DNA from: Paraspadella gotoi
Taxonomy: Eukaryota; Animalia; Chaetognatha
NCBI GenBank assembly: GCA_051294375.1
Contig: CM119264.1
Coordinates: forward strand, 15,154,682-15,218,681
Length of the DNA stretch: 64,000 bases
Direction of reading: 5' to 3'
The position numbers and the translations under genes are program-made. The notes below the pieces were generated by a model, which saw only the letters and a list, made by a program, of their open reading frames with translations, did not search any database and was not told the origin of the DNA. Position 1 is the first letter of the stretch, and the number at the start of each line of letters is the position of its first letter. This document shows, one piece after another, positions 14,205-61,400 of the stretch.

Positions 14205-15882
14205 TTAAAAATCCCAGCGTGACTTCTTCTTCTTCGAGTCGTCGGGAAGAGGAGGGGGAGAAAACACATGAGGGTCGGGCGCGGGCTGGGGTGGGGGTGG
14301 CGGTGGCGGAACCGGCATGGGATGGGCGGAGGAGTATGTCGGAGACGGCTTTGCCGTGTACCCGGGGGGAGGCGGGGGAAGGTGTCTCTTCTGGCGTTTC
14401 ATGGTCTCTTCAATTTGATCGTCTGTAATGACTTTTCCATAGGAGAACATATTTTCCTCTTTTGTGTCCGACCTTAGAAAATTACAAATTAAGTTCCGGA
14501 CAAGAAATTGCGAAAGTTAAAAATAATTAATATAGTATGGTAGACTAAAATCCACCAACCGTTCATCAGCGACCATTAGTGCAGGATGCAAGTCCTTCGC
14601 CTCCCAACCCAAAGGTCCGGGGTTCTAGCCCGGTGGTTGCCTAGCAGTTAAGAGGGACCGGGCGCTTCACCCGCCTGTAACACGGTGTTACAGCCCGATC
14701 TGAAGCTCAGGGGCTGCTTATATTCTAGACTTACGCTCGCTTGAGGATGCCCTTAGGGGGTTCAACACCCGTTTCGTTCTGCCGCTCAAGTTCTGAAGCA
14801 AGTGCGCGCGATCGAGTCTCCGACTCCCAACCTTCTACTCCGGCGGACTGGAAATGGGATCTGAATAGAGAAATAGGAAAGAGGGTTTTTCATTGCAGTA
14901 AGAGATGGAACTGCAAATTCAATTCGATTTTACTTGTATTGGCCGATAAAGGCGGAGCGAATAGTGGCAACTCGGTTGGTCTGTTGTCCGGATATGTTGA
15001 ATATCGAGGCGGAAGTTCCCTTTGATCCACCAAGTGCTTCGCGGGCGTCGGCAGTCGTTCCGCCCGGAGTGGAAGGACCGGCGGTACCGCTTTGGCTGCT
15101 GCCAAGGCCAGGTCGTTCACGAACACCGAAGGAACCGAGTTTTTTTCCTTTTCCGCCCTTGTATCGTGAATTTCTGAACCAAGACGACTGCATGGCTAAC
15201 TCCATTAAGTCGGCCGGCACCTCCTGATTAACGCTCTCTAAATTGCGAACCAAGTGGCCTGCAAATTCTTTGTCCTTGGCAACGACAAGAGTATACGCAT
15301 CGCCCGTTTCCCCGGCCCGGCCAGTCCGACCAATACGGTGCGTGTGCGTATCGATGTCACGGGCAACGTCGTAATTGACGACAGTTTTAATGTGGGGAAT
15401 GTCGAGACCGCGGGCTGCCACGTCCGTGGCAACGAGAACGGGAAACTCTTTCTTCTTAAACCTACAAATAATTCAAATCATAAACATTTATAAATAAATT
15501 AAATATACATTGATATACAATATACAAGGAAGTTCGAGTTAAGTTTTTATTTATTAGTTTTAATTTAATTATTAACTTATGAGAGTTTCAAGGATTAGTA
15601 AGAAATAATAAATGGAACGGCCGTTTTTATATACCTGGCGATGACGTTGTTCCGATCAACCTGATGCATGTCTCCATGAAGAAGCTCCAAAACAACGTCC
15701 TGCTTCTTCAAATTCTCCGCTAACTCCTCAGAGTTTTGTTTCTTGGTGACGAAGATAAGGACAGAACCGAGAGAGGTGAATCTGACGATGTTGGATGTGA
15801 GCCATTTCCACTTGAGAGAAACCTCTTTAAAAACTATGACATGTTGACGCACGTTCTCGTTGGCTTCCCCCACCGCCTCACC
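14205..15882 (-). CDS. DDX42: DEAD-box helicase DDX42, C-terminal half (exons approx. 15882-15635, 15461-14936, 14859-14735, 14473-14205)
   Basis: [72 protein letters not shown] and terminal KKKKSRWDF typical of DDX42. Confidence 0.93.
14536..14724 (+). mobile_element. Truncated, decayed LTR of the tRNA/twister TRIM inside the last DDX42 intron
   Basis: Aligns with the LTR at 56026; twister cleavage motif TAA mutated to TCA; 3' end missing. Confidence 0.8.
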
Positions 15883-18384: not shown

Positions 18385-18584
18385 TTGATGCGATGATAGC
18401 CAGTCATTGATGCGATGATAGCCAGTCATTGATGCGATGATAGCCAGTCATTGATGCGATGATAGCCAGTCATTGATGCGATGATAGCCAGTCATTGATG
18501 CGATGATAGCCAGTCATTGATGCGATGATAGCCAGTCATTGATGCGATGATAGCCAGTCATTGATGCGATGATAGCCAGTCATT
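18385..18584. repeat. 22-bp tandem array (ATTGATGCGATGATAGCCAGTC) ~9 copies
   Basis: Directly visible perfect repeats. Confidence 0.95.
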
Positions 18585-19210
18585 AGACACATTTGAATCC
18601 GACAATGTTTTAAATAAACAACCAGTCTCGGTGTCATTCTGTTCGTTTTTCCAAGCTCTTTTTAACTAAAAAAGTTTTATTTAAAAAAAAAAAACTTTTT
18701 CGCCCGAGCCAGGGGTGGTAAAGAGCCAAAATATGGAATTTCACCTTTTATGAGTATTTTTTAGCTTTTTTCAGTAATTTTTTTAATATAATTATCATTA
18801 ATCAAGTTAATTACTAATGATAATGCTTTTAAATTATCATATTTAACTATTTTTAAAACATTCATTTGCAAAAAATATTGGTTTAGGGCTTAAGCCAGGG
18901 GTGTTAAAGAGCTAAAATTTCTAAATTGTTTTTTTTAATATTTTCAAATAATAATTTACTATTTTTTTAAGGATTACATATTTTAATCATGATATTAAAA
19001 ATATTTGAAAATTTTAAATGGTTTTTTAAGTTAAGTAACATAGTTAATTATTTTTTTTATAATTAAAAGCATTAAAAAAATTGTAACCTATTTCTAAAAA
19101 GTTTTTTTTAAAAGATTCATCTTAAAAACAAAGAAATTTATAATTTTTTTTAATCATATAATGAAATTGTTATAACCAGGGATGTGGAGCTGGAGCTGGA
19201 GTCGGAGCTG

Positions 19211-33400: not shown

Positions 33401-36400
33401 TCGAAAACAAGAGAGGTCTCAACCTCCACTAACGCTTTTACAATAGTTCACGCCTCTACCGGAACTAATTCCATTGTCTACAAAAACGCCTCCACTCTCA
33501 CCAGTGCTATTAAGTGCAGCGACGCCGCTTGTGCGACAGAAGACAAACTCATGGTCAACGCCGAAGTCACAACAGAAAACGAAAAATCAGTCGACGCCGC
33601 AACACAGACAAAATTTGACGGGGCAAGTAAATGTCGCCGACGCCATGACGGCTGCTATCGATGTCCTTAATGCAGCGCGGCTATCGGCTCCGTCTCTGAG
33701 CAACGACTCTCACCGTCTCATCGGCGTGGCTATTGCATCTATACGCGCCGTCCGTCGCGACCTTGGAGTTGTGCCAACGCCTCCAACGCCTTTCAGGACG
33801 GCTCGGCAATCTCAGCAGATTCCACCCTCTCGGATTTTTCCGCCATCTCGGCCGTTTCTGTCATCTCGCCCGTTTCCGTCATCTCGGCCGGCTCCGCCAT
33901 CTCGGCCGGCTCCCGCAGCTCCGCGGCCGGCACCACGACTTCCTTGGCGAGATCCGCCACCTCCATGGCCAGCAAAGCTGACTTCCATTTCAGTGCCTCT
34001 AAAGTCAGCTCGGCCTCCACGATCCTACGCCGCTGTTTGTGCAGCTCCGCCTGATTCTCGGCCAGCAGCGCCTCCAAGATTTAAATACGCGCAGACTTTT
34101 CCAAGTCGTCACCTTCCAGCCTACGCCCGCAGACAGTCACGCGATCCACCAAAAGAAGAAAGTCCTTCGGACTTTTCGCGGGGGGCGGGGATGTGGCGAC
34201 GACGGTTTCGTCGCTACGGGGTTGACCCCAGCTGGCCACTATGTTTGGTGGTCGCAAGGGAAGCCGGCTACTGACACTCTCTTTCTTAGCCGGTGCCCCG
34301 TTTCTCTAGTTAGTCTCATCTCAATATCTTGTACATTTAATGTCTCTCCGTTTCCTTCTGTTATTTAACCTGCTAATAAAATATTATGTACCCCTACATA
34401 AACTTTGTTTTCTCTTAATTATGAATATCAACTTATTAATTGAATGGTTGAATGATTGATTGATCAAAAGAGTTATTAATTAATAAATTTTTTTTTCAAT
34501 TTTATTAAAGTAAAGTATATCATCATTGAAAGATAGTTTTAGTTAGCCTTAATGTCTTTTCAAAGATTTATTCCTTCTATTGTTCATTTTTTAAATGTTT
34601 TCTAATAAATTTTAGTTTTTTTTAAATTTATTCTGTTTTATTTTATTTACTTCTATGTTAATTTTAAAAAGGGAAAGAAAAAGTGAGAAAAAGTAAAATT
34701 AGAAAGATTATTTTTTTTTTATTAGCAAAATAGAATATTATTGCATGTAAGAATTAATATAATATGCAGATGCATATTATATTTCAAAATATTCTTTGAT
34801 GTAAATGTATAAAATTAGCTGAAAGGAAAAACGAAAACAATTAGGAGAAAGTAAGTAAAAAAATACTGGAAGGGCCGAAAAAAACGATAAGAGATTAGGA
34901 TAGAAAAAAGATTAAAAGGGTTGAAAATAACAAAGGGAAAAAAATGAAAAAAATGTAGAAGAGACGGGGGAAAATATAGTGAGAAAGGGAGAGGAGAATA
35001 AGAGAGGANNNNNNNNNNNNNNNNNNNNNNNNNTGACATGGCAGAAACGCAGAAAGAGATCAGGCAAGTAATGATTGTACAATTCCAAAAAAAATGCTAG
35101 TGTTAGCCTTAATCAGCGCTTTATATAGTTCAGAAAGAGTATTGTATGAAAAAGATCACTCCTAAGTATTAGACGGGGATACTATATGTATTCGCACTAG
35201 TATGAAAAATCAGGACTGAATTTTAAGAAATTGGTACAAACATATAGAAAAAATCTTAAAAGTATAGTGATCTGCCAGACTTAACATCAAAGAATATATT
35301 TTTTTTTCTGAAAGCAAACAAGCAAAACAAATAATTACGGGATATTGCAAAAAGTTCCTATGTTTAATAATAAATATAAAAAAAAATGAAAATAGAAAAG
35401 ATCAAGGGACAGTCAATGAAAAAATCCGGAGAATAAACGAGTCATTCATGACGCGATAATCATCATCGTTAATAAAACGAAACAAATGGGTGTATGAAGG
35501 AGAGAGAAAGAAAGGAAGGTTATATGTTCTGAATTGTGAAATTGAAATGGAAGGAAGGAGGAGAAAAAGAGAAGAAAGAGAAGAATAGAAATAAAAAATA
35601 AAAAGGTAAAAAAATTGATGCGATAATAATCAATTGATAAATGAATACCAAATAATTAATGTGATGATAACCAAATGATTGATGCAATGATAGTCATTTA
35701 TTGATGTGATAATAATCATTCATTGATGCAATGAATCATTCATCAATAAATAAAACAAATAAATGCATGAATGAGTGAGAGAGAAAGAGAGAGAAATAAA
35801 AGAGAGAAAAAAAAAGAAAAGAGAGAAGTCAAACTGTAAGAGATGATTATTTAATATGATTTTAAATGAGATTGAATTTCTTAATCTCATTTACATATTG
35901 CAGTATTTGATTTATATGTGTTTATTTTCATTTTGCTGATGTTTTTAAAGGTATTAAGTCAAAGTTGACCCTCTGGAAACTCGGCCATTGCTAACCTTAG
36001 GAAGGTTACTAATATATTTCTGTATTCTGCTTTATGGTATAGAACAGAATTGTTGACGCCTTCGTTTGGAGATATTAATGCTTTAAAAACTGACGTAGAA
36101 AATTGGATGTTTTATGGTAGAAAAGAGATTGCTAAGGATAGGCTGAGGGATTCTTATTATAATTGTGGAGCGCAATTAATGGATATCAGAGATAAGGTTA
36201 AAGCACAGAGAATAATGTGGATTAAAAGGTTGTTAAGCAATTATGAACAACATACCATCAGTGAACATTAATTTGTAAAAAAAATTTATTTTATGTTTTT
36301 AATTTTCGCAGTAGGCTATATTATATATAGTACTATCCTTAGGAGAAAAACAGTTTTTGTTTGACAACGATTTATTTGACATAGTTTAGTCAGACATGTT

Positions 36401-39400: not shown

Positions 39401-42400
39401 ATTCGGAGGAAGAAATGAATAACTTTTATGACGTCATCTTGCAAAAATCAATAAGAAATTCGGCGCCTCTCGTACCTGCACCAGCATCATTCAAGTCCCT
39501 TGTGAAAGCACCCCTCCTGGTTGGCGGCCGTCGAAAACAAGAGAGGTCTCAACCTCCACTAACGCTTTTACAATAGTTCACGCCTCTACCGGAACTAATT
39601 CCATTGTCTACAAAAACGCCTCCACTCTCACCAGTGCTATTAAGTGCAGCGACGCCGCTTGTGCGACAGAAGACAAACTCATGGTCAACGCCGAAGTCAC
39701 AACAGAAAACGAAAAATCAGTCGACGCCGCAACACAGACAAATTTGACGGGGAAGTAAATGTCGCCGACGCCATGACGGCTGCTATCGATGTCCTTAATG
39801 CAGCGCGGCTATCGGCTCCGTCTCTGAGCAACGACTCTCACCGTCTCATCGGCGTGGCTATTGCATCTATACGCGCCGTCCGTCGCGACCTTGGAGTTGT
39901 GCCAACGCCTCCAACGCCTTCCAGGACGGCTCGGCAATCTCGGCAGATTCCACCCTCTCGGATTTTTCCGCCATCTCGGCCTTTTCTGTCATCTCGCCCG
40001 CCACCTCCATGGCCAGCACAGCTGACTTCCATTTCAGTGCCTCTAAAGTCAGCTCGGCCTCCACGATCCTACGCCGCTGTTTGTGCAGCTCCGCCTGATT
40101 CTCGGCCAGCAGCGCCTCCAAGATTTAAATACGCGCAGACTTTTCCAAGTCGTCACCTTCCAGCCTACGCCCGCAGACAGTCACGCGATCCACCAAAAGA
40201 AGAAAGTCCTTCGGACTTTTCGCGGGGGGCGGGATGTGGCGACGACGGTTTCGTCGCTACGGGGTTGACCCCAGCTGGCCACTATGTTTGGTGGTCGCAA
40301 GGGAAGCCGGCTACTGACACTCTCTTTCTTAGCCGGTGCCCGTTTCTCTAGTTAGTCTCATCTCAATATCTTGTACATTTAATGTCTCTCCGTTTCCTTC
40401 TGTTATTTAACCTGCTAATAAAATATTATGTACCCCTACATAAACTTTGTTTTCTCTTAATTATGAATATCAACTTATTAATTGAATGGTTGAATGATTG
40501 ATTGATCAAAAGAGTTATTAATTAATAAATTTTTTTTCAATTTTATTAAAGTAAAGTATATCATCATTGAAAGATAGTTTTAGTTAGCCTTAATGTCTTT
40601 TCAAAGATTTATTCCTTCTATTGTTCATTTTTTAAATGTTTTCTAATAAATTTTAGTTTTTTTTAAATTTATTGTTTTATTTTATTTACTTCTATGTTAA
40701 TTTTAAAAGGGAAAGAAAAAGTGAGAAAAGTAAAATTAGAAAGATTATTTTTTTTTATTAGCAAAATAGAATATTATTGCATGTAAGAATTAATATAATA
40801 TGCAGATGCATATTATATTTCAAAATATTCTTTGATGTAAATGTATAAAATTAGCTGAAAGGAAAAACGAAAACAATTAGGAGAAAGTAAGTAAAAAAAT
40901 ACTGGAAGGGCCGAAAAAAACGATAAGAGATTAGGATAGAAAAAAGATTAAAAGGGTTGAAAATAACAAAGGGAAAAAATGAAAAAAATGTAGAAGAGAC
41001 GGGGGAAATATAGTGAGAAAGGGAGAGGAGAATAAGAGAGGACAGGAAAAAAACTTTTCTCTTAAAAAATAAAAGTTTTCCTAACAAAAAATAACAAAAA
41101 TCATACATGAAAATTAACCGAATTTAACCGTTAAAATAAATATATTAACGGTTAAGTTAAAATTATTTTGAACTGTTAACGGTTATCGGAACTCTAAAAG
41201 CGATTGCGACGATAAAAAAAAAGGTCAACCGACGACGACGACCACCGAGGCTTCACCATAGTTCGGTGAAATGATTCATTGTGACTGAGGCTATCTTGAT
41301 GACCTAGATCAACTCCAGTCCCCAGAAAATAACCTTTTATTTTTGGAGCCGAGATAAGTGTCTCGATTACTCACAGCTCATAAAAACTAGCCGCCTTGTT
41401 TTATATTCCGTGGACAGGATGATCAGGGAGGAGTTGGAGGAAACGCAGCACAAAAATCGTCTCATCGAAGATTCTGTGAAGAAAAGGCAAGAAAAACAAA
41501 GAGAAAAAGAAATGGAGAGAAACCAGAGACACTCGGACGTGGACTCGCTCACGAAAGAATTCAAGCGGATCACCGAGTAAGAGCTGTTGGAGAATAAAAT
41601 CTAAAATCAGCGAAAGAAAAGGAATCATGATCCACAGTAAAAGGGGTAACAAACTCGAGCGGTTACCGGGGAGGTTAAATGTAATGCTAATTACGAGTGG
41701 GTTGCCAGTATAATAACAAGTTTGAGCAAACAATGTCGGTTCTGCCCACGATAATTAAGCAGTAATTAGCTAAATAAAAAAGAAAAAAAATTTAAAAAAA
41801 TAAAAAAGAAATAAAAAAATAATATATTAGAAATAATTACAAGTACAAATAATTTTTTTAACTATTATTATTTTTTCAACTCGCATCATTTTTTTCAACT
41901 CGCATCATTTTTTCACTTAATTAAAACATTCACGAGTAAGCATAAATAATAAAAATTCAAATCAAACTGACTTTGGTTTTTTCCATGCAAACTCATTTCC
42001 ACTCCTCGATTCCATAGAAACTTTATATCGTGCTCAATCACACACTTTCCTACCCACACACAAAATTTAATCTCAATCTATCCTTCCAATTATAATTAAT
42101 TCGATTAATTTTGGATTACATTTATTAAAAAGATTCAAATAAAAGTGACAATTATGATTAATTTGATTAATTATGGGTTCAAATTAGTAAAAAGATTTAA
42201 GTTAATGTTACTTTTGTTTTTTTCCATTCCAACTCATTATCACTCCACACTTTCCTAACCACACAAAATATTTCATTCCAATCCATTCATCCAATCACGA
42301 GTAATTGGAGTTTTTTGCTTAGGTGGACGGATGGATGGACGGACGGACATCGTTTTTTTTTTGCTTAATATGATGTTCTTATGTGATAAAAATGATTTAC

Positions 42401-45400: not shown

Positions 45401-48400
45401 TGGGGTTTTTATTTCACTTTAGTCTTTCAAGTCTGATTCAAGTTTCACTTTGTCTTTTGTCTGGGAATTCTGACAGTGTTTAGAGAGGTCGCATTCGATC
45501 AAACTGCTCGCTTATGCGTGCTTAAAGTAAAACAAAAGTACCTTCAATAATGTTACTCCAGTCTTAGCACTTGCTAAAAATTAAACTCGAAAATAAGTTA
45601 TTTTATTGTTTTATATTTATTCTTTTGACAATGAAAAAGTTTTTTTTTTTTTAGAAACTAACTGTAAATTGACAATCGCAAAATAGAATTTTTCTTTCTG
45701 TTTATAAATTAATTTTCTTTTTTTCCCCTTTATATTCTTTCTTTCCTTTCTTTCCTTTCTATTCTTTCTTTCCTTTCTTTCTATTCTTTCTATTCTTTCT
45801 TTCCTTTCTATTCTTTTTTTTCTATTCTGTCTTTCCTTTTTTTCCTTTCTATTCTATTCTTTTCTTCTTTTTCTTTCTGTTTATAAATTTTTTTTTTCAA
45901 ATTTGATTTTTTTTAGTATCAAAATTTGTCGTCAATCCAGATTTTTCTTATGCAATTGTGACGATCCTTATGCTTTTAAGATTTTTTCGATATAAAATAA
46001 AAAGAAAAATTGACAAAAGTGATTAAATGTGACAAAAAGAGTAAAATTAATGAAAGTTAAGCAACTGAGAGAAGAGTTGCTTGCTGCTTAGCGATCGAGT
46101 AAAAAAGTCATCGTCCAAAGAAAGAAAACTAGTTATTCTATTTTTTTCATTCATTACCTTTGTCAAGCTTGTTCTACAGAACTGAGTTGAATTATAATTT
46201 GGGTTAAATATATTGCCTAATCAAAGGTTGTAAAAGACTTGGAAAAATATATTAAGCTTGCTTGATTAATTTAAGAATAGATCCGACTTGTTGATAAATT
46301 CATCAACTATACAAGATATGAAATGAATAAAAATCAAAGATGAATTAAAAATTATATTTATTTCAAAACTAAATTGACTCTTTACAATAGACTTAATTAT
46401 TAACTATAAATCATGAATAGATAACAAAAAAATAGAATAACTAGTTTTCTTTCTTTGGCACTATAGATGATGATCTTTTTTTTTCTCGACCGGCAAGCAG
46501 CAAGCAACTCTTTTCTCAGTTGCTTAACTTTCATTAACTTTACTCTTTTTGTCTCATTTTATCAATTTTTAATCATTTAATCACTTTTATCAATTTTTCT
46601 TTTTATTTTATATAAAGAAAAAATTTTAAAAATTACCTTATTTAAAAGTCATATTCCTTTATAAAATAATAAAAATTTAAAAAAAACTTTAAGGACCTGG
46701 TGAAACAAATCAGAATTTAATATTTTTTTATTTACAGAAAAAAGAAAAGAAAAGAAAAGTGAAAAAGAGAAAAAGAGAAAAGTTCATTCCCTTTTTCCCT
46801 TTAGCCTAGTTCAAACCTATTAAAAAATAATAATAATTAAGGAAAGTGATTTTTTTAAATTTAAAAAATTATAACTTTTTAACCGATAATCTTTTTTTAA
46901 AAATTCTTTCAGCAAAACAAAGGCAATTCGCCATAATTTTTTTTAAAAAATATTTCACGAACATTGTTAAAAATATCATTTTTAAAAAATTTTATCAAAA
47001 ATTGCCCAAAACAATAGGTTTTAAAAAAAATTTTCCTTAGTAAAAAACTAACTTAATTTATAATGCTGACTACTACCATCTACAACTCAGATGCTCTTTT
47101 ATATAGGAGATATCGACGTTCGTCTCTTTCTCTCTTTTGCGTTCATTCCAGATTCTGCGTTGAAACGGGACTCTTCTCCAAAATAATGAACGTTTGTGGA
47201 TTCTTTGTGGACGTTTAGTGGTTTCTTCGTGGATTTGTTTATTTGATTATATTGCTTCTTTGATTAATCATTTGATTATTAGTTAGTATTTCATTGATTG
47301 TATTGTATGAATATCTATATGCTTTGATTATTTTATTAAGGTACCATTGAAGAGACAGTAATTATTGATAAGTGTTAATGACAGAACCATTCAATATAAG
47401 CAGTTCCTGAGCTTCGGATCAGGCTGTAACACCGTGTTATAGGCGGGTTAATCGCCCCGTCCCTCTTAACTGCTAAGCGGCCACCGGTCTAGAACCCCGG
47501 ACCTTTGGGTTGGGAGGCGAATGACTTGCCTCTGGCACCAATGGCCGCTGATGAACGGTTGGTGGAATTTAGTCCACCATACATCCCCCCCTCCCGTAGG
47601 GAGAAGTCCGTTGCGTCTCTTCAGTGAATTGTTGTTGGTGGAAAGTGCGTCACCAAGTTGAGGCATGTCGCCTGATGTGTTGTGGGCGGAAAGTGCATCG
47701 CCAGGTTTTAGGCATGTCGCCTGAAAGTGTTGTTGTTGCTGTTGGGTTTGGAAGTCGGGCTCACCAATGAAGAGACAGTAATTGTTGATAAGTGTTAATG
47801 ACAGAACCGTTCAATATAAGCAGTCCCTGAGCTTCGAATCAGGCTGTAACACCGTGTTACAGGCGGTTTAAGCACCCCGTCCCTCTTAACTGCCAAGCGG
47901 CCACCGGGCTAGAACCCTGGACCTTTGGGTTGGGAGGCGAATGACTTGCCTCCGGCACCAATGGCCGCTGATGAACGGTTGGTGGAATTTAATCCACCAT
48001 ACCATTAAATATCAAGACTCCAAGTGGATAAGAAACTTATAAACTTTACGGCGCCAGCGGTCCCGGTCTTCAGTCTAGTTTCTCTCCCGACGTCTTCTCT
48101 CTCTCCGCTAGGTCAAGGAGGGGGTTCTTACAATGCGAGGTATGTAACAGTCAATTTTTTCCGCTCTTACAAGATAGTTGGGGTTTCGTCCCTCTAGCAA
48201 TAAAGCTTTAAAGATATTTAACAAAAATCCATTTTTACTTTTTTTTTTCATTTTTTCAAAGTTGTCAGCATTTACTGTAATTTTTTTTTTTTGAAAAAAA
48301 AAGTTCAAAAAATTCATATGATGTATGGGCACCTTTTACACAACTCGTTTTTTGATTTCAAAACTTTTCATATATGGAAAGGTCTAATCCCACGACCCGT

Positions 48401-51400
48401 AATCATCATCTTTCAATAATTTTATTATTTTTTCTTAATTTTGACCAAAAAAACAAAAATTTTTGAAAGTTATATTTTTATTTAACTTTTTATGCTCTAT
48501 CAGAATCCATCAAAAATAAGTTAATATTGATTAAAAAAGTTTTTATCATTATATAGTAATATTATAATTTTGAAAGCAACATTAAAAGCATTAAAATCGA
48601 ACTTTTTTTTAAAATTCTTTTTTTACCTAAAAATAGACTTCAAGACAAAAGTTTTGAACCCGCGCCCCTATTGAATTTAATTTCATAGTAGATTTCTACC
48701 AGTAACCACCTTTAACCCTAAATACCCCTAACCTTAACCAAATTTTATATATAGGAATAAAAAAAAATAACCGACCGGTTCCGGTGGGCGAAAGTACAAT
48801 TATGCCCAAGATAATAATCTACTTACTCATCATCATATTAATCTACATACTCAGACAGAAGCTTCAGTCTTTAGCGATTCAAAAATGCGAAGACCTCAAC
48901 TTTGAAGGAAGACTTTTGGACTCAAAACGCGCGGAGATGGAGGGAAAGTTAAAGACGAACAAAAGCCAAATTTACTCGCAACAGCGACATCTAGAAAAAT
49001 TGAAGAGAAAGTCAGACAAAATGGATTTAAGAAATAAAATAGAAAATGATTCTTTGGACATCGTCGTTAAAAGGCACGAAAAGGTAAAAAAAAGATAATT
49101 TGCCCGAGAAAAGAAATTTGTTTGACCAAAATGAAATTTCTTTTGATATATAATTTAGATGAGAAAAAAGAAATTCTTTAAATCAACGATGGTTTATTAA
49201 TATCCGTACATCCGTACAACATGTTTCGACTTTAGGTTAAGTCTTCATCAGCGCTTGACATGTTGATACAATGATACATAATTTGAAATCTTAGTTACAA
49301 CTCGAAGTGGAAAAAAGTCCTTGCTTGCCGAGCGACGCCATTACACAATTAACTAACTTGAAGCACGAAGTGGACGCAGCAAGAAGGAATCTTTTCTTTG
49401 AAGGAAGTTTGAGCATCGCGGAACAACTCGCCACCGAGAAAGCCAAAGGGATTGAGTTCGCGATGGTCAAGGAGCTCGTAAGTAATAAGTAATAAGGGGG
49501 GAAATTTTGCTGATTGTGCTGCCGATCATACATACAGTGTGTCCCAATGGTACTGTCGGTTAACTTTGACATTGTTATTTCAGAAATGAGATTTAATAAT
49601 ACAGTTCCGCACAATTTGTAAAAGATAAGTTATTACCATTTATGATACGATATTTCGAATTCAATTTTTATCAATTTTTCTTTGCAGAACATTCAATTTA
49701 AATGAGTCATCATTTCTCACTTTTTAAATTTTTAGATATTTTTTTATTTTAAAATAAATTTTATTAAAAAAATTAAATAAAAAATATTTTAAATAGATAT
49801 AAATTATTTAAATATTAATTTGTATATAATAAGTGCATTAATAAATAAAAATAAACAAATATACAAAATACAAAATTGATAAAAATATGCTAATTAATTT
49901 TATATTTAAATTTTATTATTTGAAGTTGTGAGCGACTAAATCATTAAGCCAGAACAAGATGGTTGCTATTAATTCAATAATAAAATTACAATTAAAAAAA
50001 TAATATAAATAAGGTAAGTAGATAATTTTAAAAATAATGATTACTGAATTATAAAATCTTTGGAGCTAAAAATATGAGGTAGTTTCTTACTGTCCTACAT
50101 ATAAAGAAAAGATTTAAAACATTATTTAATCAATATTATAAAAAATATTTGTTAAATATTAAAAAATATATAATTAAATTTTTTTGGTTCAAAATCACTG
50201 AAAAAATTGGAGTTTGCTTTGTTCAATTTTTAAAATTTAGGTATCCTATAAAATGGTCCATATTTGTGCGCATATTCATTATAATGAATTTGTGGAGGAC
50301 AGTCGACGACGACTATGGTCGACGATTCGACCGACCTTTTCGTCCCCGTTGGGTCACTTGATATGACCGACGTTTCTCTCTCTTTCTGACTCGTGCTCCC
50401 CTCCTTATAAGTAGATACCGTCACTCGAATAAACCTTTCATTGTTATTCTTACATTTTACATTGTAATAAATGTATATTATCATTAAACATTGTTTCCTT
50501 TTCCAACGTCGCTATAAATTAAAGTTTTTCGATCTGGTCTAAGAGCAGTAAGCTTTTCTTAACAGACAGTACCATTGGGACACTCTGTATAAGTGTATTG
50601 TCTGGTGGTCCTATCACCACAGATGGATTAAAGCTGTTTCTTTCGCAGCGCCTCAGTGGCTCAGTGGACTAATGCACCATCCCAATGTGCGTCCCTGGTT
50701 CGAGCCCTGAGGTTGTCATGTAGTAAGTGGGATGGACCGGGTAACCCGCCTGTAGGCATGGGCCTACTGCCAGATCCAAAGCTCTGGACTACATGAACAT
50801 GCTGTCTCGCTGTCGCCACGAGGTGACACCGCTGCGGGGTGTGGCGCCCTGTAAACTAGTGTTCCGTTAACCGTTAACTGTTAACGGTTATTAACGGTTA
50901 AAAATAATTTTAACTTAACCGTTAATATATTCATTTAACGATTAAATTCGGTTAATTTTCAAATGTGATTTTTTTATTTTTGGTATGAAATCTTTAAATT
51001 TAAAAAAAAAACTATTTTTTTTCTTTCTCTCTTATTCTCACCATATTTTTACCCCTCTCTCTTCTCTCAATTTTTCCCGGCTTTTTTCCTTTGTTATTTT
51101 CTCCTTTTTTTCTATCCTCATCTCTCTCTTATTCGTTCTTCCCCTTTATTTATCTCCTCCTGTTCCTTTCTTTTTCTTTCTCACTTTTCCCCTTTTTCTT
51201 CCCCCTTTCTTTTTTCCCTTTTTTCGCCCTTTGCTTTTACCTTTTTCCTTTTTTTTGCCCTTTCATGCAATAATATATATTCAATTTAGCTAAAATAAAT
51301 AATCCCTTTTATTTTACTTTTTCTCTCTTTTTCTTTCCCTCTTTAAAATTAACAAAGAAGCAAATGAAATTAAACCGAATGAATGAAAAAAAATGAATAA

Positions 51401-52777
51401 AAACCAAATAAAAAATTCTTTTAAAAAATTTAAAAATTAATAATAGAAGGAACGAATCTTAAAAAAGACATATAAAAATAATAATGATGATATACTTTTT
51501 AATTAAAATGAAAAATATATTTATAATCAATAAATATTTTGATCAATCGATAAATCAACCAGTCTATCAATAAATTAAAATTCATATTTATATTTATGGT
51601 CAATGACCATTGCATTGGTCATAGTTTATGAAAAACTTACAACAGAAAACAAGCGTTTAAGAAACTACAAAAATAATGGGGAATAGAAGAAGTAGAGAAA
51701 GAAAAAGAAAGCAAAAGAGAGAAAGAGAAAACAAAATATAGAATTAGAATTTGATGGTATCCTTTCGTTCGTTGTGTGTTATGAGATTAGCAAAAATATT
51801 TTTTGTTACAACAACAATTTTATTTGACATAAAAAATAGACATATTTCGACTCTGTTTCAAGTCTTTATCAGCGCATTCAAGAGCCAGAGTTAAAGAGAA
51901 AATACCATTAAATACTTTATTTTGTTTTAAATCTTAATATTTTAAATTTAAAGTTGAATTATAAAATTAACCGATCTTAACGGTTAACCGTAAAAATGTT
52001 AGTTTTAACGCGTTAAGCGGAATTTCCTAAAAAATTAACGGTTATCGGAACTCTATGTAAAACCAGCCTCTTCAATATATCAAATCTGAAAAACGTTTTG
52101 TAAATTTAATGTGTGAGGCTATCAAAATGTCAAATTCTGCTAATACCAGGATAAACTTCGAACTGAAGGAATTGAGATGGGTCGATTGACTACCCTTTTG
52201 ACGACAGATAGAGAAGAGAAGTCTCGCGACGTTATGAAGGCTCAGGACAGACTTAAACTGGCCAAGGAAGACAAGAAAGTAAAGTCGCAGGTGAGATGCG
52301 CGTCATAATAAATCATAAATTAAGCTTAAGAAATTATCAAAATGTGTCTTCACAATTCACTTAAAAAACATTTGTTGTATTTTAACATTAAACGTTCAGA
52401 CAATAGACTATCACGAAAAGAAATTGAAAGAGGTGCAAGATAATCTTCGAAGGTTCGCCCAGTTTTATGAAAAGGAAAAGAAGTTAAGGAACGACGCTGT
52501 TTTTAAAATTCAGGAGGTACATTTAGAATTATGATCGTTTTTTATGATCTGTCATTCGATTTTACCTCTGATTTACAAATATCAACCTCAGTGTCAGCAG
52601 TTGGAGGTGGAGATGAAGGAGAAGATTCACCATCACAGCAACGAGATTCAAAATCTGGAATTTCTCTTCAAAAGACTGGACGGCCAGCTGCTGCGGCGCG
52701 CAAAACGGTCCGTCGAGACCAAAAGCCTCAGGGATGCCATCAAAAGGGACACGGAACAAACAAGCGCCAATATTCAG
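24425..52777 (+). CDS. CCDC146: CCDC146/MBO2-like axonemal coiled-coil protein, partial (exons approx. 24425-24478, 24659-24800, 24886-24999, 25126-25432, 27141-27331, 41418-41576, 42613-42795, 48855-49083, 49295-49477, 52150-52290, 52400-52516, 52591-52777); C-terminal third not in window
   Basis: DREEKSRDVMKAQDRLKLAKEDKKVKSQTIDYHEKKLKEVQDNLRRFAQFYE aligns with CCDC146 DEKEQKSKDFLKAQQKY..KAKDLEIRIHKKK..RLREFAKLYD; LKHEVDAARRNL ~ LHKEVEVAKRNL; LNITPA ~ LSETPA; colinear order. Confidence 0.8.
25580..27082 (-). mobile_element. HINE family 1 partial copy hosting HINE family 3
   Basis: Body homology; resumes at 27013 after the insert. Confidence 0.65.
26068..27012 (+). mobile_element. HINE family 3 (Helentron derivative) inserted in a T-run
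   Basis: 5' palindrome AGTTGCGCCGCGAGTACTCGCTGAGCAACT, 3' subterminal IR GCGGCGTAAC, hairpin GGAATAATCGTTCC, CTTGTT end, no TSD. Confidence 0.7.
28140..28573 (+). mobile_element. L1/Tx1-clade non-LTR retrotransposon ORF2 fragment (post-RT region); duplicate at ~35840-36271
   Basis: KLTLWKTRPL..TNIFLYSALWY..KEIAKDRL..YYNCGAQLMDIRDKVKAQRIMWIKRLL resembles the L1/Tx1 'GGLGL.D...K.KA....WI.RLL' segment. Confidence 0.6.
28694..28736 (-). ncRNA. Minimal type I hammerhead ribozyme (PLE pLTR); duplicate at 36390-36431
   Basis: CA-CUGAUGA-A-GGCUCU(loop)AGAGCC-GAAA-CAUG-UC^UG; palindromic ACAUGU stem III. Confidence 0.85.
28976..31165. mobile_element. hAT-like non-autonomous element inserted in the PLE 3' UTR
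   Basis: Termini T(T/A)GGGTGGAG...CTCCACTCTA, ATGTACA duplicated at both flanks; left end also at ~57305 and ~61179. Confidence 0.6.
33230..34398 (+). mobile_element. 3' end of an LTR element: orphan ORF, PPT and ~207-bp LTR (34192-34398); duplicate 39361-40440
   Basis: G-rich tract GGGGGGCGGGA directly before TGTGG...CTACA with internal AATAAA; GC-rich frameshifted ORF upstream. Confidence 0.55.
35034..41040 (+). repeat. Near-identical tandem copy of ~27302-35008 (probable haplotype/assembly duplication)
   Basis: Begins at an N gap with many indels; same nested TE order; lacks ~29200-30760. Confidence 0.85.
36341..39213 (-). mobile_element. Second copy of the Penelope-like element
   Basis: Near-identical to 28646-33080 with the same 5' truncation point. 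Confidence 0.9.
41714..42475 (-). mobile_element. HINE family 1 diverged full copy
   Basis: Both termini present. Confidence 0.7.
42810..42965 (-). mobile_element. Possible old tRNA-derived SINE
   Basis: GC-richer island with B-box-like GGTATCGAAGC and terminal hairpin GCGG..CCGC; single copy here. Confidence 0.3.
43060..43332. mobile_element. Tc1/mariner-type MITE with long imperfect TIRs
   Basis: TA|CAAGGTGACACAC...GTGTGTCACCTTG|TA, inverted similarity over ~90 bp. Confidence 0.85.
45990..46612. repeat. Foldback element/MITE with ~160-bp inverted arms
   Basis: 45990-46147 is the imperfect reverse complement of 46427-46612. Confidence 0.75.
47400..47473 (-). ncRNA. Type-P5 twister ribozyme in 3' LTR (a more mutated one at 47820-47893)
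   Basis: GCAGUU-AAGAGG-GA-CGG-GGCGAU-U^AA-CCC-GC-P3-CCUGA-UCCGAAGC-UCAGG-AACUGC. Confidence 0.8.
47897..47968 (-). promoter_or_regulatory. 72-nt tRNA-like internal Pol III promoter in the TRIM LTR (not a functional tRNA)
   Basis: 7-bp acceptor stem GCGGCCA/TGGCCGC, A-box-like TGGTGCCGGAGG, B-box-like GGTTCTAGCCC, loop CTCCCAA. Confidence 0.75.
49215..49255 (-). ncRNA. Hammerhead motif in a solo PLE pLTR remnant (CCDC146 intron), weak stem I
   Basis: CUGAUGA-A-GACUU..AAGUC-GAAA-CAUG-UU. Confidence 0.6.
50716..50796 (+). ncRNA. Type-P5 twister ribozyme, family 2; predicted cleavage 50742/50743
   Basis: UCAUGUAGU-AAGUGG-GA-UGG-ACCGGG-U^AA-CCC-GC-P3-CCAGA-UCCAAAGC-UCUGG-ACUACAUGA. Confidence 0.82.
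50857..52055. mobile_element. hAT-like MITE; related inverted partial copies at ~34400-35008 and ~40441-41196
   Basis: TIR TAG(T/A)GTTCCG(T/A)TAACCGTTAA, subterminal AACCGTT motifs, ~8-bp TSD TGTAAA(A)C. Confidence 0.8.
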
Positions 52778-54185: not shown

Positions 54186-55887
54186 CAGGGTAGTGAATCA
54201 AAACTTAGAATAGAATTCATAAGATTTCGATGGCAAAAAATTAATGAATTTTATTTTATAATACATCAAAATAGTCACTGATATTTTTTCTCTCTGATAG
54301 CGGTTTCATTTTTTTCATACTTCACGGTACCGAGAAGAATGCAACGTTGTATGGTGGACTAAAAGTCCACCAACCGTTCATCAGCGGCCATTGGTGCCGG
54401 AGGCAATCATTAGCCTCCAACCCAAAGGTCCAGGGTTCTAGCCCGGTGCTGGCGAGCAGTTAAGAGGGATGGGGCGCTTAACCCGCCTGTAACATGGTGT
54501 TACAGCCTGATCCGAAGCTCAGGGACTGCTTATATTGAATGGTTCTGTCATTAACACATATCAATAACTACTGTCTCTTCATTGGTGAGCCCGACTTCCG
54601 AACACAACAGCAACAAACACTTTCAGGCGACATGCCTCAACTTGGTGACGAACTTTCCACCAACAACAATTCACTGAAAGACGCAACAGACTTCTCCCTA
54701 CGGGAGGGGGGATGTATGGTGTTACAGCCTGATCCGAAGCTCAGGGGACTGCTTTATATTGAATGGTTCTGTCATTAACACATATCAATAATTACTGTCT
54801 CTTCAGTTGGTTGAATTTGCTCCGCGCCGGATTTCAGCTTAAAACCACTATTAAAATATATTAATATTCCCTAGTAGTAGGTTATATTATTAAGAAAGTT
54901 ATTAAGAATAGGAATAACTAGTATTCTAGGTCGGGAAACCGTGCACTAAAGCTCAGTCGATTAGAGCCATATATAAGGGTGCTGTAAGCAACAATTGTAG
55001 CATACCCAAAACCAACAATAGACGTGCTGGAAACACCTTTATATGCTAAAAGGAAAATTCTAAAGAGAGAAAATGAAGAACTAAATTTAGAAATATATAC
55101 TGGGACATGTTATCTTTATTACCCTATAGCGATTAAGCTGCAGCAGTTTGAAAAGTTATTTTTATCCTTGATTATAAAAAGCAATTTTAAGAGGCTGTAA
55201 AGATTTATTTTTTTTCTCAAGTTCACACTGTAGTGGCCCCTCTGGCTGAGTGCGATCTCTGTGATCTTATGAAAACAATAACTACTGAAGTTGGGACTCT
55301 ATGTATAAAATATCAAGTTAATAGCATAATGCAACCTACTGCAGCGTCAGATAAAAAAAATTTTTCTTTGTATTTTTGCTACTGGGTGAAAAATCATTGC
55401 TGCAGTCTATTATAGAGTACTGAGATTCCATTTCTTGATATTTATGAAGAAGCAATACCCTTGGGTTTAATATGTATGGCAGTAACAAAGAGCTTTATTG
55501 TTTACAGCTGAAAAAAATAAAGATTTCAAATGCAGTAACATTTTAATTTTTGACTGAAGGATTTTTCGCTTGATATTATTATTATTATTATTATTAAATT
55601 CTTTTTAACTTTGCTAAGTAAGGCGTTTTAAAGGGCGGCACCCGTATGACTTTTAACCAAAATATTGATAGGCGAGGATAATCCGTTTATGAACAGCAGC
55701 TGTGATTCTTTTGGGTGCTGTGGCAGGTGTCGTTTTTGCAACAGTGCTTATCGCATTGCATTAATAGTTAGAACAAGGTCTGGTTAAGTATCTTTAATTA
55801 ATTTTTTTTCATTAAATGCACACGATGCATCACAAAATAAAAAAAAGATGGTGATACGGATTTTCTAAGTTTTGAATCACTACTCTG
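54186..55887. mobile_element. Tc1/mariner-like non-autonomous element (same family as 3352-5574) hosting a TRIM
   Basis: TA|CAGGGTAGTGAATCAAAACTTAG...CTAAGTTTTGAATCACTACTCTG|TA. Confidence 0.8.
54350..54805 (+). mobile_element. TRIM copy with internally deleted 3' LTR; twister at 54456-54529; duplicate 58265-58717
   Basis: TSD GTTG, PBS, PPT; empty site seen in the host family copy at ~5410-5430. Confidence 0.9.
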
Positions 55888-56025: not shown

Positions 56026-56676
56026 TATGGTGGACTAAAATCCACCAACCGTTCATCAGCGGCCATTGGTGCCGGAGGCAAGTCATTCACCTCCCAACCC
56101 AAAGGTCCGGGGTTCTAGCCGCGTGGTCGTCTTGGCAGTTAAGAGGGACGGGGCGCTTAACCCGCCTGTAACATGGTGTTACAGCCTGATCGAAGCTCAG
56201 GGACTGCTTATATTGAACGGTTCTGTCACTAACACATATAAATAATTACTGTCTCTTCATTGGTGAGCCCGACTTCCGAACACATCAGCAACAACAACAC
56301 TTTCAGGCGACATGCCTCAACCTGGGATGCACTTTCGCCCACAACACATCAGGCGACATGCCTCACTTGTGACGAACTTTCCACAACAACAACAATTCAC
56401 TGAAGAGACGCAACAGACATCTTCCTACGGGAGGGGGGATGTATGGTGGACTAAAATCCACCAACCGTTCATCAGCGGCCATTGGTGCCGGAGGCAAGTC
56501 ATTCACCTCCCAACCCAAAGTCCGGGGTTCTAGCCCGGTGGTCGTCTGGCAGTTAAGAGGGACGGGCGGCGCTTAACCCGCCTGTAACATGGTGTTACAG
56601 CCTGATCGAAGCTCAGGGACTGCTTATATTGAAACGGTTCTGTCACTAACACATATAAATAATTACTGTCTCTTCA
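56026..56676 (+). mobile_element. Complete TRIM copy (tRNA+twister LTRs); duplicate 59909-60552
   Basis: Two LTRs, PBS TGGTGAGCCCGAC, PPT, TSD ATGT. Confidence 0.92.
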
Positions 56677-57539: not shown

Positions 57540-60500
57540 TGAGAAGAGGGCAGTTTCACAGCCGTACCAGGCCGAGAGACATTCTGGAGCCCTTGACTCT
57601 CCCACAAGGAAGCCTCCCTTTGTTCCAGCTCAAAAGGCTCAACCGACTTGTTCTCAACCACTGACAGGCGTCATGACGACCCCATCGATTAGGCGCTTTC
57701 ATTTGCTTCAACCATCTCTGTGTTGGAAACTTTGCCCTCTCTCTCTATTTTTCTCTCTTTCTCTCTTCTTCTTTTGCACAATTCATTTAAAAATTCACAA
57801 ATAATTTGTTAACGCTGAAGAAGTGAAGAAGGCTTGTATGTAAGCCGAAACATGTACGTTTTTACAAATAAAGTCATTGTAGAAAAACATTAAAAACGTC
57901 TTCAATATATTAACCTATAATTAGTTTTCAGTATAAAAATATAGTTTTTTAAATTTTTGGCTATTACTTAATGAAAGAATTTTTGATGAAGAGAATTAAT
58001 TAATTAATTAAGAAGATTATTAATTAATCTTTGAGGAATTCGAATCTGCTTTCAAAACTAATAAAACGTTATTTTAAAATTTTAACATTTTCTATGGTAA
58101 GTACAGGGTAGTGAATCAAAACTTAGAATAGAATTCATAAGATTTCGTGGCAAAAATTAATGAATTTTATTTATAATACATCAAAATAGTCACTGATATT
58201 TTTTCTCTCTGATAGCGGTTTCATTTTTTCATACTTCACGGTACCGAGAAAGAATGCAACGTTGTATGGTGGACTAAAATCCACCAACCGTTCATCAGCG
58301 GCCATTGGTGCCGGAGGCAAGTCATTAGCCTCCCAACCAAAGGTCCAGGGTTCTAGCCCGTGGGCTGCGAGCAGTTAAGAGGGATGGGGCGCTTAACCCG
58401 CCTGTAACATGGTGTTACAGCCTGATCCGAAGCTCAGGGACTGCTTATATTGAATGGTTCTGTCATTAACACATATCAATAACTACTGTCTCTTCATTGG
58501 TGAGCGACTTCGCGAACACAACAGCAACAACACTTTCAGGCGACATGCCTCAACTTGGTGACGAACTTTCCACCAACAACAATTACGAGAGACGCAACAG
58601 ACTTCTCCCTACGGGAGGGGGGGATGTATGGTGTTACAGCCTGATGCCGAAGCTCAGGGACTGCTTTATATTGAATGGTTCTGTCATTAACACATATCAA
58701 TAATTACTGTCTCTTCATGTTGAATTTAGCTCCGCGCCGGATTTCAGCTTAAAACCACTATTAAAATATATTAATATTCCCTAGTAGTGGTTATATTATT
58801 AAGAAAGTTATTAAGAATAGGAATAGTATTATCTACGGAGACAGTGCACTAAAGCTCAGTCGATTAGAGCCATATATAAGGTGCTGTAAGAAACAATTGT
58901 AGCATACAAAAAACCAACAATAGACGTTGCTGGAAACACCTTTATATGCTAAAAGGAAAATTCTAAAGAGAGAAAATGAAGAACTAAATTTAAGATTATA
59001 CTGGGACATGTATCTTTATTACCCTATAGCGATTAAGCTGCAGCAGTTTGAAAGTTATTTTTATCCTTGATTATAAAAAGCAATTTTAAGAGGCTGTAAA
59101 GATTATTTTTATAGATATCTTAGTGCTCTGCTGAGTGCGATTTGTGATCTTATGAAAACAATAACTACTGAAGTTGGGACTCTATGTATAAAATATCAAG
59201 TTAATAGCATAATGCAACCTACTGCAGCGTCAGATAAAAAAAAATTTTTCTTTGTATTTTTGCTACTGGGTGAAAAAATCATTGCTGCAGTCTATTATAG
59301 AGTACTGAGATTCCATTTCTTGATATTATGAAGAAGCAATACCCTTGGGTTTAATATGTATGGCAGTAACAAAGAGCTTTATTGTTTACAGCTGAAAAAA
59401 ATAAAGATTTCAAATGCAGTAACATTTTAATTTTTGACTGAAGGATTTTTCGCTTGATATTATTATTATTATTATTATTAATTCTTTTTAACTTTGCTAA
59501 GTAAGGCGTTTTAAAGGGCGGCACCCGTATGACTTTTAACCAAATATTGATAGGCGAGGATAATCCGTTTATGAACAGCAGCTGTGATTCTTTTGGGTGC
59601 TGTGGCAGGTGTCGTTTTTGCAACAGTGCTTATCGCATTGCATTAATAGTTAGAACAAGGTCTGGTTAAGTATCTTTAATTAATTTTTTTTCATTAAATG
59701 CACACGATGCATCACAAAATAAAAAAAAGATGGTGATACGGATTTTCTAAGTTTTGAAATCACTACTCTGTACTATGTATAAATATGGGCGTATGCAAAT
59801 ATTGAGAAATTTAAACAAACTTTTTTAATATATCTATGTTCTTTAGTCCAAGACTGTTCATGTTTAACTATTCAAATTTGATCTGAAACTTTCGCTACGC
59901 CTTAATGTTATGGTGGACTAAAATCCACCAACCGTTCATCAGCGGCCATTGGTGCCGGAGGCAAGTCATTCACCCCCAACCCAAAGGTCCGGGGTTCTAG
60001 CCCGGTGGCGTCTGGCAGTTAGAGGGACGGGGCCTTAACCCGCCTGTAACATGGTGTTACAGCCTGATCCGAAGCTCAGGGACTGCTTATATTGAACGGT
60101 TCTGTCACTAACACATATAAATAATTATTGTCTCTTCATTGGTGAGCCCGACTTCCGAACAATCAGCAACAACAACACTTTCAGGCGACATGCTCAACCT
60201 GGCGATGCACTTCCGCCCACAACACATCAGGCGACATGCCTCAACTTGGTGACGAACTTTCCACCAACAACAACAATTCACTGAAGAGACGCAACAGACA
60301 TCTTCCTACGGAGGGGGGGATGTATGGTGGACTAAAATCCACCAACCGTTCATCAGCGGCCATTGGTGCCGGAGGCAAGTCATTCACCTCCCAACCCAAA
60401 GGTCCGGGGTTCTAGCCCGGTGTCGTCTGGCAGTTAAGAGGGACGGGGCGCTTAACCCGCCTGTAACAGTGTTACAGCCTGATCCGAAGCTCAGGGACTG

Positions 60501-61400
60501 CTTATATTGAACGGTTTGTCACTAACACATATAAATAATTACTGTCTCTTCAATGTGTATGTTATTTATTAGTTATTACGATAACTTAACCTCTCACAAA
60601 TTTTAACTCAGAAGTTATTAGAAATATTTTTCTTTCAAATTGATAAAAACTTCATTGTGTCGTACAAAGACTTAATTTTTATCTCACCAGACGTGCAAGG
60701 CCCGTCTTGGAGTGATTTAGCATTGTTTCTTTGTGCTATCGTCGTCGTTGTCGTCACAATTTTTTACAGTTAAAATTATAAAGTGTGTAATCATAAAAAG
60801 CTAAAAATTTAGATTATATCTATTTTTATGTAAAAACTATTACGAATTGCGATTGATTCTTGTAAAAATCCGATCATAGGAAGCAAAAATTTAGTTATAA
60901 AACAATATTTTTAAAGATCTTGATAATGAGAAGCCATATCGATACTCAGATTTGTTTGTTTTATTTACAAAACAATTTTTATATAAAAACTACTACTACT
61001 ACTACTTTTTCTCTGTCGCTGCCTCTTCTGATTTGTTTAAAAACGAGTTCAGCTCTGCAACGGCTAAACTTCTCTTTCCCTTTTTTTTCCTTTCTCTCTT
61101 TCTCTTTCTCTCTCTTTCCACTCATACACGTGTTTTATTTATCGCATGAATAATTAGGTATCATGGCTTAATAATTAGTAGGGTGGAGTGATGAAAAGGT
61201 TGAGCGATGGAACAATGTTTTTTTGTTGCCTTTGTATATGTAATTTAAAAATTAAACCTTTTTTTTAAATAAATTTTGCATAACAGTATCATTAATTAAA
61301 TTTTCTTTATAGTAATATCCTTATAAAATCATAAAATTTCAAAAATCATATTTTTTTTAATTGGATTCGCCGGAAAAAACTAAAAAACTTTTGTAAAATA
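57540..61400 (+). repeat. Near-identical tandem copy of ~53617-57527 (probable assembly overlap artefact)
   Basis: Same TE order and TSDs; indel-rich at the junction. Confidence 0.85.
60430..60501 (+). ncRNA. Type-P5 twister ribozyme with intact core; predicted cleavage 60453/60454
   Basis: GCAGUU-AAGAGG-GA-CGG-GGCGCU-U^AA-CCC-GC-CUGUAAC..GUUACAG-CCUGA-UCCGAAGC-UCAGG-GACUGC. Confidence 0.8.

Follow-up and report, generated by a model that had tools for sequence, protein, structure and literature searches.

Does a short repeat with a tRNA-like head carry a self-cleaving ribozyme that has been maintained as RNA, and if so, what kind of mobile element moves it? The question is raised by a 64,000-nt stretch of AT-rich animal DNA from the chaetognath Paraspadella gotoi (GCA_051294375.1, contig CM119264.1, positions 15,154,682 to 15,218,681; the whole stretch is called here the window, and positions are counted from its first letter). 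Two families of non-coding repeats in the window, referred to as families 1 and 2, join a tRNA-like head to a motif resembling the twister ribozyme. Our comparison supports selection on the twister fold across both families and establishes family 1 as a true long terminal repeat (LTR) element. The assembly is noisy, with many small indels, and family 2 is represented in the window by one copy only; the comparison is one of two families and not a deep alignment.

The family 2 motif (50716-50796) has, as read from its letters, the strand order of a type-P5, that is circularly permuted, twister: P5, AA, the 3' strand of P2, GA, T1, a linker, UAA, the 5' strand of P2, GCC, P3, P4 with the loop UCCAAAGC, and P5. 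In this copy P5 pairs 50716-50724 with 50788-50796; the 3' strand of P2 (50727-30) is followed by G50731-A50732, T1 (50733-35/50776-78), the UAA site (50742-44), the 5' strand of P2 (50745-47), T2 (50748-49/50781-82), P3 (50750-69, with its inner stem at 50752-50757/50762-50767) and P4 (50770-74/50783-87). The P5, P3, P4 and T1 pairings proposed in an initial annotation of this DNA are all present; that annotation described the fold correctly but overlooked the absence of P1, the self-complementary linker in its place and the insertion that splits the element. Minimum-energy folding recovers P5, P3 and P4 unaided (-31.6 kcal/mol, z -2.4), and a descriptor of the core has five matches in the window against none in 100 shuffles. 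This copy alone has U50724-A50788, the innermost P5 pair: because public contigs read A at 50724 (depth 88763/88796 in run X1, and likewise in X5, X8 and X10, among the contigs listed), the P5 of the family is taken as 8 bp (50716-23/50789-96).

Ten copies of the motif were aligned, nine of family 1 and one of family 2. Over this alignment 97.8% of 228 cells pair, a value reached by none of 500 shuffles and by none of the slid controls (27-49%), and four pairs, in P5, P3, P4 and the pseudoknot T1, change on both sides. T2 is paired in all ten copies and T1 in 96% of cells, with one double change; in family 1, where T1 had been given as CCG/CGG, it is C-G in seven of the nine copies but U-G in the other two. 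These rows are related, however, and two family 1 loci sit in a 3.9-kb tandem repeat, so we rejected treating all ten as independent; since 53.6-57.5 and 57.5-61.4 kb are 96.5% tandem duplicate, family 1 counts as four independent loci in the window. The fair test, because of this relatedness, is family against family. Compared with the clean family 1 copy at 60.4 kb, family 2 has 20 identical pairs, five double changes (one of them the outermost P5 pair) and one unpaired position. With the outer P5 pair excluded, the exact probability of at least four double changes and at most one break, given nine substitutions over 25 pairs, is 8e-6 to 4e-5, and the calculation on the 17 pairs of the variable helices gives 4e-5 to 2.4e-4. 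The sole break, U50751.U50768, is the consensus state of the Rfam type-P1 model RF03160, whose P3 consensus is nearly identical to that of family 2 and agrees with its outer pairs letter for letter. The initial annotation had P5 replaced wholesale between the families; the pairing is there, but in the homologous register the difference amounts to one or two compensatory changes plus an extension.

The unpaired catalytic letters G50731, A50732, A50743 and A50744 and the loop UCCNAAGC are kept in family 2 and in intact family 1 copies, and the core found in both families comprises the UAA site, the general-base G with the A that follows it, the GC of T2 and the UCCNAAGC loop. In the rice twister Osa-1-4, G13, G30, A46 and G48 are intolerant of any change (PMC5113685; this and the other papers cited are drawn on for the parts available to us), and by our own position mapping their equivalents are present in both families. 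Letters of the core had been called invariant; UAACCCGCC is intact in eight of the ten aligned copies. Between the families, the tRNA-like head (44/79) and the twister (53/81) align better than shuffles, while the leader and the tail do no better than shuffles (equalled in 306 and 322 of 500); of the age that the initial annotation gave the tRNA-twister cassette, the only sign is this deep divergence of leader and tail. The paired-cell and exact double-change statistics thus support the earlier proposal that the structure has been selected across the two families.

Searching the window with a covariance model of the ten copies brought up no third family, and the strict descriptor had no match in metagenome contigs or in prokaryote genomes. 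Relaxed, the descriptor gave 119 metagenome loci (of ~170) and four viral loci, but full pairing of P4, T1 and P2 was found in none of the 125 parsed relaxed matches outside the window (best 9/11), against five of six within it, and we took the outside matches to be chance and not relatives.

Family 1 shows in which kind of element such a motif can reside. Its full elements, of 651-655 bp, run LTR (234 bp, TATGG...CTCTTCA), primer-binding site (PBS), ~170 bp of non-coding DNA, polypurine tract (PPT) and LTR, with a twister, identified by motif only, in each LTR. Perfect 4-bp duplications of the target site (TSDs) flank all three independent two-LTR loci, and the PBS is identical at 12 of 13 positions to the tRNA-Trp PBS of Gypsy-32_NVi and Helenus-2_SyJa. 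Family 1 is a true LTR element and, because it has the order LTR-PBS-PPT-LTR with 4-bp TSDs at three of three loci, we read it as Helenus-like, a tRNA-headed terminal-repeat retrotransposon in miniature (TRIM). Indeed, it has everything by which Helenus, or TRIMp3, is defined in the available text: two LTRs, a PBS, a PPT, no coding sequence, a length under ~1.3 kb and a 4-bp TSD. Since the LTR pairs differ by two mismatches at 56 kb and by 13 at 47 kb, insertion was spread over some time. The 3' LTR of the 54350 element has lost its tRNA head and half of its twister via a deletion between two short repeats. LTRs beginning with TG were considered and rejected, the starts being TA in family 1 and TC in family 2.

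The family 2 unit is 268 bp long, LTR-like, and split by a 1.2-kb miniature inverted-repeat transposable element (MITE). A start at 50599 with a GTAT/ATAT TSD was considered and rejected; we place it at 50601, from loose contig ends that precede this position (among the contigs listed) and from the likeness to family 1 termini, and the flanks then read ATTG/ATAT. Before 50601 the sequence varies among the public contigs listed, and joints free of the MITE occur in public contigs of at least three runs (X1, X5, X8). Cover of family 2 in X1 is ~85000-95000, against 30 on the unique flank, a ~3000-fold excess that is a sum of the depths of the contigs listed and not a copy number. Of the features held to be common to the two families, the UCCCAA loop is present in both heads; the TGGTGG..CACCA hairpin is present as sequence but is weak in family 2 (z -0.47) and clear in family 1 (z -2.5); and the CTCTTCA end is joined to the rest of family 2 only past the MITE. 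The 3' end bears no poly(A), A-rich or repeat tail. From the ends it has in common with family 1 we infer the LTR status of family 2, which is very probably a true LTR family, and this copy is best read as a solo LTR, a MITE-interrupted leftover with an intact ribozyme motif.

In the families reported here the ribozyme motif takes the place that, in most Helenus LTRs, belongs to a T-run terminator of RNA polymerase III (Pol III). In the family 2 head both the A and the B box are perfect and the fold is stable (z -3.4); the family 1 head has a B box, a cloverleaf-like fold and a degenerate A box. ARAGORN calls no tRNA in the window by default and calls the family 2 head only at the 80% threshold, where the window yields 41 calls; at relaxed thresholds the program is unspecific (41 and 217 calls). 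Judged by its boxes, the head is likely to be an internal Pol III promoter. The twister motif begins 3 nt past the head. In 9 of 11 complete Helenus LTRs a run of at least four T follows the tRNA part (PMC10886601, supplement part 9, by eye). The other two, Helenus-2_SyJa and Helenus-2_SyUm, have no such run and by eye show at that place what resembles a type III hammerhead, its loops I and II complementary (Data S1); both use a Trp-type PBS, as does family 1. The available text of PMC10886601 makes no mention of a hammerhead in these Synergus wasp LTRs and contains neither 'twister' nor 'self-cleav'. If the hammerhead reading is right, ribozymes would have replaced the Pol III terminator twice.

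What, then, could the motif do in an LTR element? A 6-nt linker takes the place of P1. Family 1 has G-GCGC-U there and family 2 A-CCGG-G; the two are related by a G>C/C>G double change, and the linker is self-complementary over its central four letters in family 2 and over its full length in six of the nine family 1 rows. A self-complementary linker replacing P1 suggests that the twister is a dimer, assembled from both LTRs. On isolated cores, a half-swapped pair of copies with an inter-copy P1 gains 7-9 kcal/mol, and in the predicted folds of three of three elements an 8-bp helix, pairing the 3' portion of the first LTR with the leader of the second, closes the unit. Short palindromic helices mark dimeric hammerheads, which are believed to cleave multimers and leave circles alone (PMC4209133, PMC7229834). 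On these models we lean slightly towards cleavage being dimer-assisted.

The cycle we propose is as follows. Pol III would initiate transcription at the 5' LTR's tRNA head and, there being no TTTT, read through; the 5' half of each twister would pair with the 3' half of the twister in the other LTR, the palindromic linkers forming P1; and both U/A sites would be cut, giving a 416-420-nt RNA with a 5'-OH, a 2',3'-cyclic phosphate and no terminal repeat, which a host RtcB-type ligase would close. The circle would be cut slowly, because it holds one linker only and could not form P1. A Ty3/gypsy reverse transcriptase, using a tRNA-Trp-like primer, would then go round the circle and rebuild two LTRs, and the gypsy integrase would insert the product. 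RtcB circularises metazoan hammerhead retrozyme monomers in vitro (PMC7229834), and gypsy-dependent reverse transcription round a circle has been proposed for plant retrozymes (PMC4918200, PMC7761336); we rather favour the circle as the template. All these steps are inferred; the sequence itself displays the covarying fold and the A and B boxes and, in family 1, LTRs with a PBS, a PPT and 4-bp TSDs. The reading as a whole is that of a non-coding LTR mini-retrotransposon with a tRNA head, in whose LTR a twister, probably dimeric, cleaves itself and yields a unit-length RNA that is circularised and reverse-transcribed; it seems to us evenly balanced between right and wrong.

Several observations weigh against it: (i) Rfam, searched with the window and three of its sub-regions, returns no twister at the gathering threshold or at E up to 10, and the motif is not a member of the type-P5 family RF02684 as modelled. 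(ii) Four departures from the twister consensus are common to both families: no P1 hairpin forms within one copy (8 bp in the RF02684 model); P2 has 2 bp plus a mismatch or bulge, with a 3-nt 5' strand, where the consensus has four pairs; P4 has 5 bp; and an A-U, pairing kept, replaces the near-invariant G-C that closes the top of P4. According to one structural paper, changes in P2 length might disrupt the active site. (iii) The linker palindrome is broken in one and gapped in two of the nine family 1 rows; a palindrome is expected by chance at 0.06-0.14 per family, and there is one double change only, between families that are related. In whole two-LTR transcripts, the two-monomer fold loses to the swapped one with P1 in just one of three elements, and every fold constrained to hold the twister is 11-27 kcal/mol less stable than the free minimum, the pseudoknots being unscored. 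(iv) In the family 1 head the A-box pattern is unmatched at its expected place, and the lack of TTTT on the sense strand of family 1 elements is a weak argument, 23-26% of shuffles lacking it too. (v) The family 2 copy has no clean TSD, and the window holds no PBS, PPT or second LTR for it, nor an autonomous partner with the family 1 PBS; the LTR nature put forward by the initial annotation thus stands for family 1 but is not displayed by this copy of family 2.

Some of the departures have precedents. P1 is dispensable in the twister env22 (PMC5408937), and flaws in P1 and P2 are tolerated among ~2600 natural type-P1 twister candidates (PMC11662667). Both the 3-nt 5' strand of P2 and a T1 of CCA/UGG occur in phage RNAs that are positive for Rfam Twister-P5 (alignments of loci L260, L277 and L357; also L363 and L379). 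These five phage type-P5 twisters, and others, read as having a 3-bp P2, and nine of ten picked, chosen by structure score from 119 loci, pass the Rfam threshold. Testing 20 of 22 further loci gave four RF02684 matches, and 20 of the 120 loci of another set gave no Rfam match; three other loci are type-P1 twisters and were used only to show the consensus. On the evidence of its conserved letters and pairs, we regard the motif at 50716-50796 as, in all likelihood, a catalytically active twister, and, as it is invisible to Rfam, more such elements have probably been missed.

The main rival to the circular cycle is a linear one like that of Cassandra, in which the twister makes only the 3' end, replacing the Pol III terminator: the RNA would begin with the tRNA head in the 5' LTR, end where the 3' LTR is cut, bear a 100-nt terminal repeat and be copied as in an ordinary LTR element, with no circle. 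The twister does sit where most Helenus LTRs have their T-run, Cassandra RNA is linear and terminally redundant (PMC10886601), and a slow ribozyme without P1 could leave the first site uncut. Yet the same motif lies in both LTRs and nothing seen explains why the first should be spared; a symmetric dimer would cut both sites, and circles are reported to accumulate from those plant LTR elements that bear a ribozyme in both LTRs. We consider the linear cycle unlikely.

Were the motif instead a monomeric 'mini-twister' working without P1, the palindromes would be due to chance. The inconsistent preference of constrained folding for the dimer would then be explained, as would the absence of P1, given env22 and the survey of type-P1 twisters, in which P1 flaws did not lower cleavage (PMC5408937, PMC11662667). 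That both linkers are 6 nt long and self-complementary, and differ by a double change, argues otherwise, and a monomer without such a guard would go on cutting the circle it had produced; this alternative appears quite unlikely.

Family 2 could also be a SINE-like repeat moved by a LINE or a Penelope-like element, one that possesses the common tRNA-twister cassette without following the LTR cycle. Such an origin would fit a copy devoid of TSD, PBS, PPT and second LTR, the very deep cover and the varied sequence before 50601 among the public contigs listed, and the presence in the window of Penelope-like elements with hammerheads. It is very doubtful all the same, as both termini are those of family 1 LTRs, 49 nt lie upstream of the tRNA head, there is no A-rich or repeat tail, and solo LTRs are common in Helenus and retrozymes.

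It is highly improbable, too, that the fold derives from a twister but no longer cuts, being kept for dimerisation, packaging or binding of reverse transcriptase: the shared departures and the blindness of Rfam would suit this idea, but G50731, A50732, A50743, A50744, the UCCNAAGC loop and both pseudoknots were retained while leader, tail and linker diverged. Finally, template switching at local inverted repeats is known, and P3, P4 and P5 are such repeats, but compensatory changes made by DNA-level hairpin correction or gene conversion, and not by selection on RNA, are scarcely credible where T1, a 3-bp long-range pseudoknot, shows a double change with a U-G intermediate in one family 1 locus and where unpaired core letters are conserved as well.

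The elements resemble several known systems and differ from each. Helenus (PMC10886601) is, like family 1, non-coding and <1 kb, with two LTRs, a tRNA-like unit with A and B boxes, a PBS and a PPT; animal Helenus has a 4-bp TSD, and Helenus-2_SyJa and Gypsy-32_NVi have a Trp-like PBS. The available text describes no ribozyme in Helenus; the families reported here lack the T-run after the tRNA part and start with TA or TC instead of TG; twister loop motifs are absent from the Helenus consensus file, in which line breaks could hide matches, bar one chance match in an internal region. Plant LTR retrozymes (PMC4918200, PMC7761336) likewise have a ribozyme in each LTR, a PBS, a PPT, a 4-bp TSD and no coding sequence, depend on gypsy elements and give a unit lying between two cut sites, as proposed here, but their ribozyme is a type III hammerhead, their PBS matches tRNA-Met, their LTRs measure ~350 bp and the available text notes no tRNA-type promoter. 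LTR, PBS and PPT are stated to be missing from metazoan retrozymes (PMC7229834). With RF02684 the motif shares strand order, UAA site, GA, GCC, UCCNAAGC loop, T1 and T2; it differs in lacking the 8-bp P1 and in its short P2 and 5-bp P4 closed by A-U, and neither RF02684 nor RF03160 scores the motif. The T-variant twisters of Schistosoma Perere-3 (PMC8501958) also lie within a retrotransposon and have a weak P1, but they are of type P1, one per element, at the 5' end of a non-LTR RTE with neither tRNA promoter nor LTR. In Penelope-like elements and amphibian retrozymes, dimeric type I hammerheads (PMC4209133, PMC7229834) similarly form a short palindromic helix only between copies, though in another ribozyme class and in non-LTR hosts. 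Tornado (bioRxiv 10.1101/2023.07.11.548538), in which a Pol III transcript with tandem twisters gives circular RNA in animal cells, is engineered and uses a U6 promoter.

The literature searched, with subscription papers and Repbase outside its scope, yielded neither a twister within an LTR element nor an animal LTR retrozyme; nor, subscription papers again lying outside the search, did it yield a natural dimeric twister. We suggest, as a tentative proposal held with something less than even confidence, that animals have LTR retrozymes of their own, TRIMs with a tRNA promoter in which the terminator was repeatedly swapped for a ribozyme (the twister here, the type III hammerhead in two Helenus families of Synergus wasps), and that the twister is an obligate inter-LTR dimer, a natural Tornado: full-length transcripts would be cut and the circular monomer spared, P1 forming only between two LTRs. 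In Tornado itself the ribozyme cores are reportedly left outside the circle. If cutting is true, this would be, within the literature searched, the first twister found inside an LTR element and the first animal LTR retrozyme. It would unite Helenus with the retrozymes, each described separately so far, in a single life cycle, and lend the twister a biological role beyond 5' trimming of RTE elements, at whose 5' end twisters of retroelements are known (PMC8501958). A dimer-dependent twister, if true, would represent a form of regulation that is new, with uses in the engineering of circular RNA.

Table 1. Positions of family 1 and family 2 features in the window
Feature	Position	Strand	Remarks
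Family 2 5' leader (U3-like)	50601..50649	+	Starts T-C-TGGTGG (family 1, T-A-TGGTGG); weak hairpin 50603-50619
Family 2 tRNA-like head	50650..50713	+	7-bp acceptor-like stem; A box 50657-50667; UCCCAA loop 50680-50685 (Gly-CCC-like); B box 50697-50706
Type-P5 twister-like motif	50716..50796	+	Predicted cut 50742/50743
6-nt self-complementary linker in place of P1	50736..50741	+	A-CCGG-G; predicted inter-copy P1
Family 2 3' tail	50797..50856	+	Hairpins 50811-50828 and 50833-50853; unalignable to family 1; ends in left copy of MITE target duplication
Inserted MITE, 1.2 kb	50857..52055		Terminal inverted repeats; ~8-bp target duplication
Last 19 bases of family 2	52056..52074	+	End CTCTTCA (52068-52074) as in family 1 LTRs; flanks ATTG/ATAT
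Family 1 two-LTR element	56026..56676	+	LTR 56026-56259; PBS 56261-56273; PPT 56429-56441; LTR 56442-56676; TSD ATGT; predicted cuts after 56158 and 56574, giving a 416-nt unit; duplicated at 59909-60552
Family 1 two-LTR element	47348..48001	-	TSD ATGG; 13 mismatches in 235 between LTRs (older copy); 420-nt unit
Family 1 element	54350..54805	+	TSD GTTG; duplicated at 58265-58718
Family 1 LTR, truncated and decayed	14536..14724	+	Core and T1 mutated

Other repeats surround these elements. The MITE within family 2, which we take to be hAT-like, has relatives at 40458-41179 and 34416-34751, and an element of ~1.05 kb at 49534-50587, presumably Tc1/mariner-like, has 32-bp inverted ends and TA flanks and stops 13 bp before family 2. 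Minimal hammerhead motifs at 53241 (-), 49251 (-) and 62484 (+) carry a palindromic ACATGT after GAAAC, with related copies near 53890 and 57817; those at 53241 and 62484 adjoin fragments that we assume to be Penelope-like, of GIY-YIG-like type. The tandem duplicate that holds two of the family 1 loci (53616-57528/57541-61400; 3.9 kb, 96.5% alike) differs by 95 gap openings against 27 mismatches and may be an assembly artefact. A second large near-identical duplicate (30756-34300/36884-40400, ~6.1 kb apart) contains Penelope-like and LINE gag-like frames with no Pfam match. Among the public runs, X10 derives from a biofilm and contains short pieces (14 contigs). Arrays of 19-bp and 22-bp units occupy 17888-18628, related 22-bp units lying near 9.7-10.9, 17.2 and 28.0 kb. 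The truncated family 1 LTR is followed directly downstream by exons of DDX42 (14888-15873, minus strand); among named proteins, the nearest to the DDX42 exon is one from a spider, at 61%. Exons resembling ubiquilin are found at 8828-9352 and 12176-12682, also on the minus strand.

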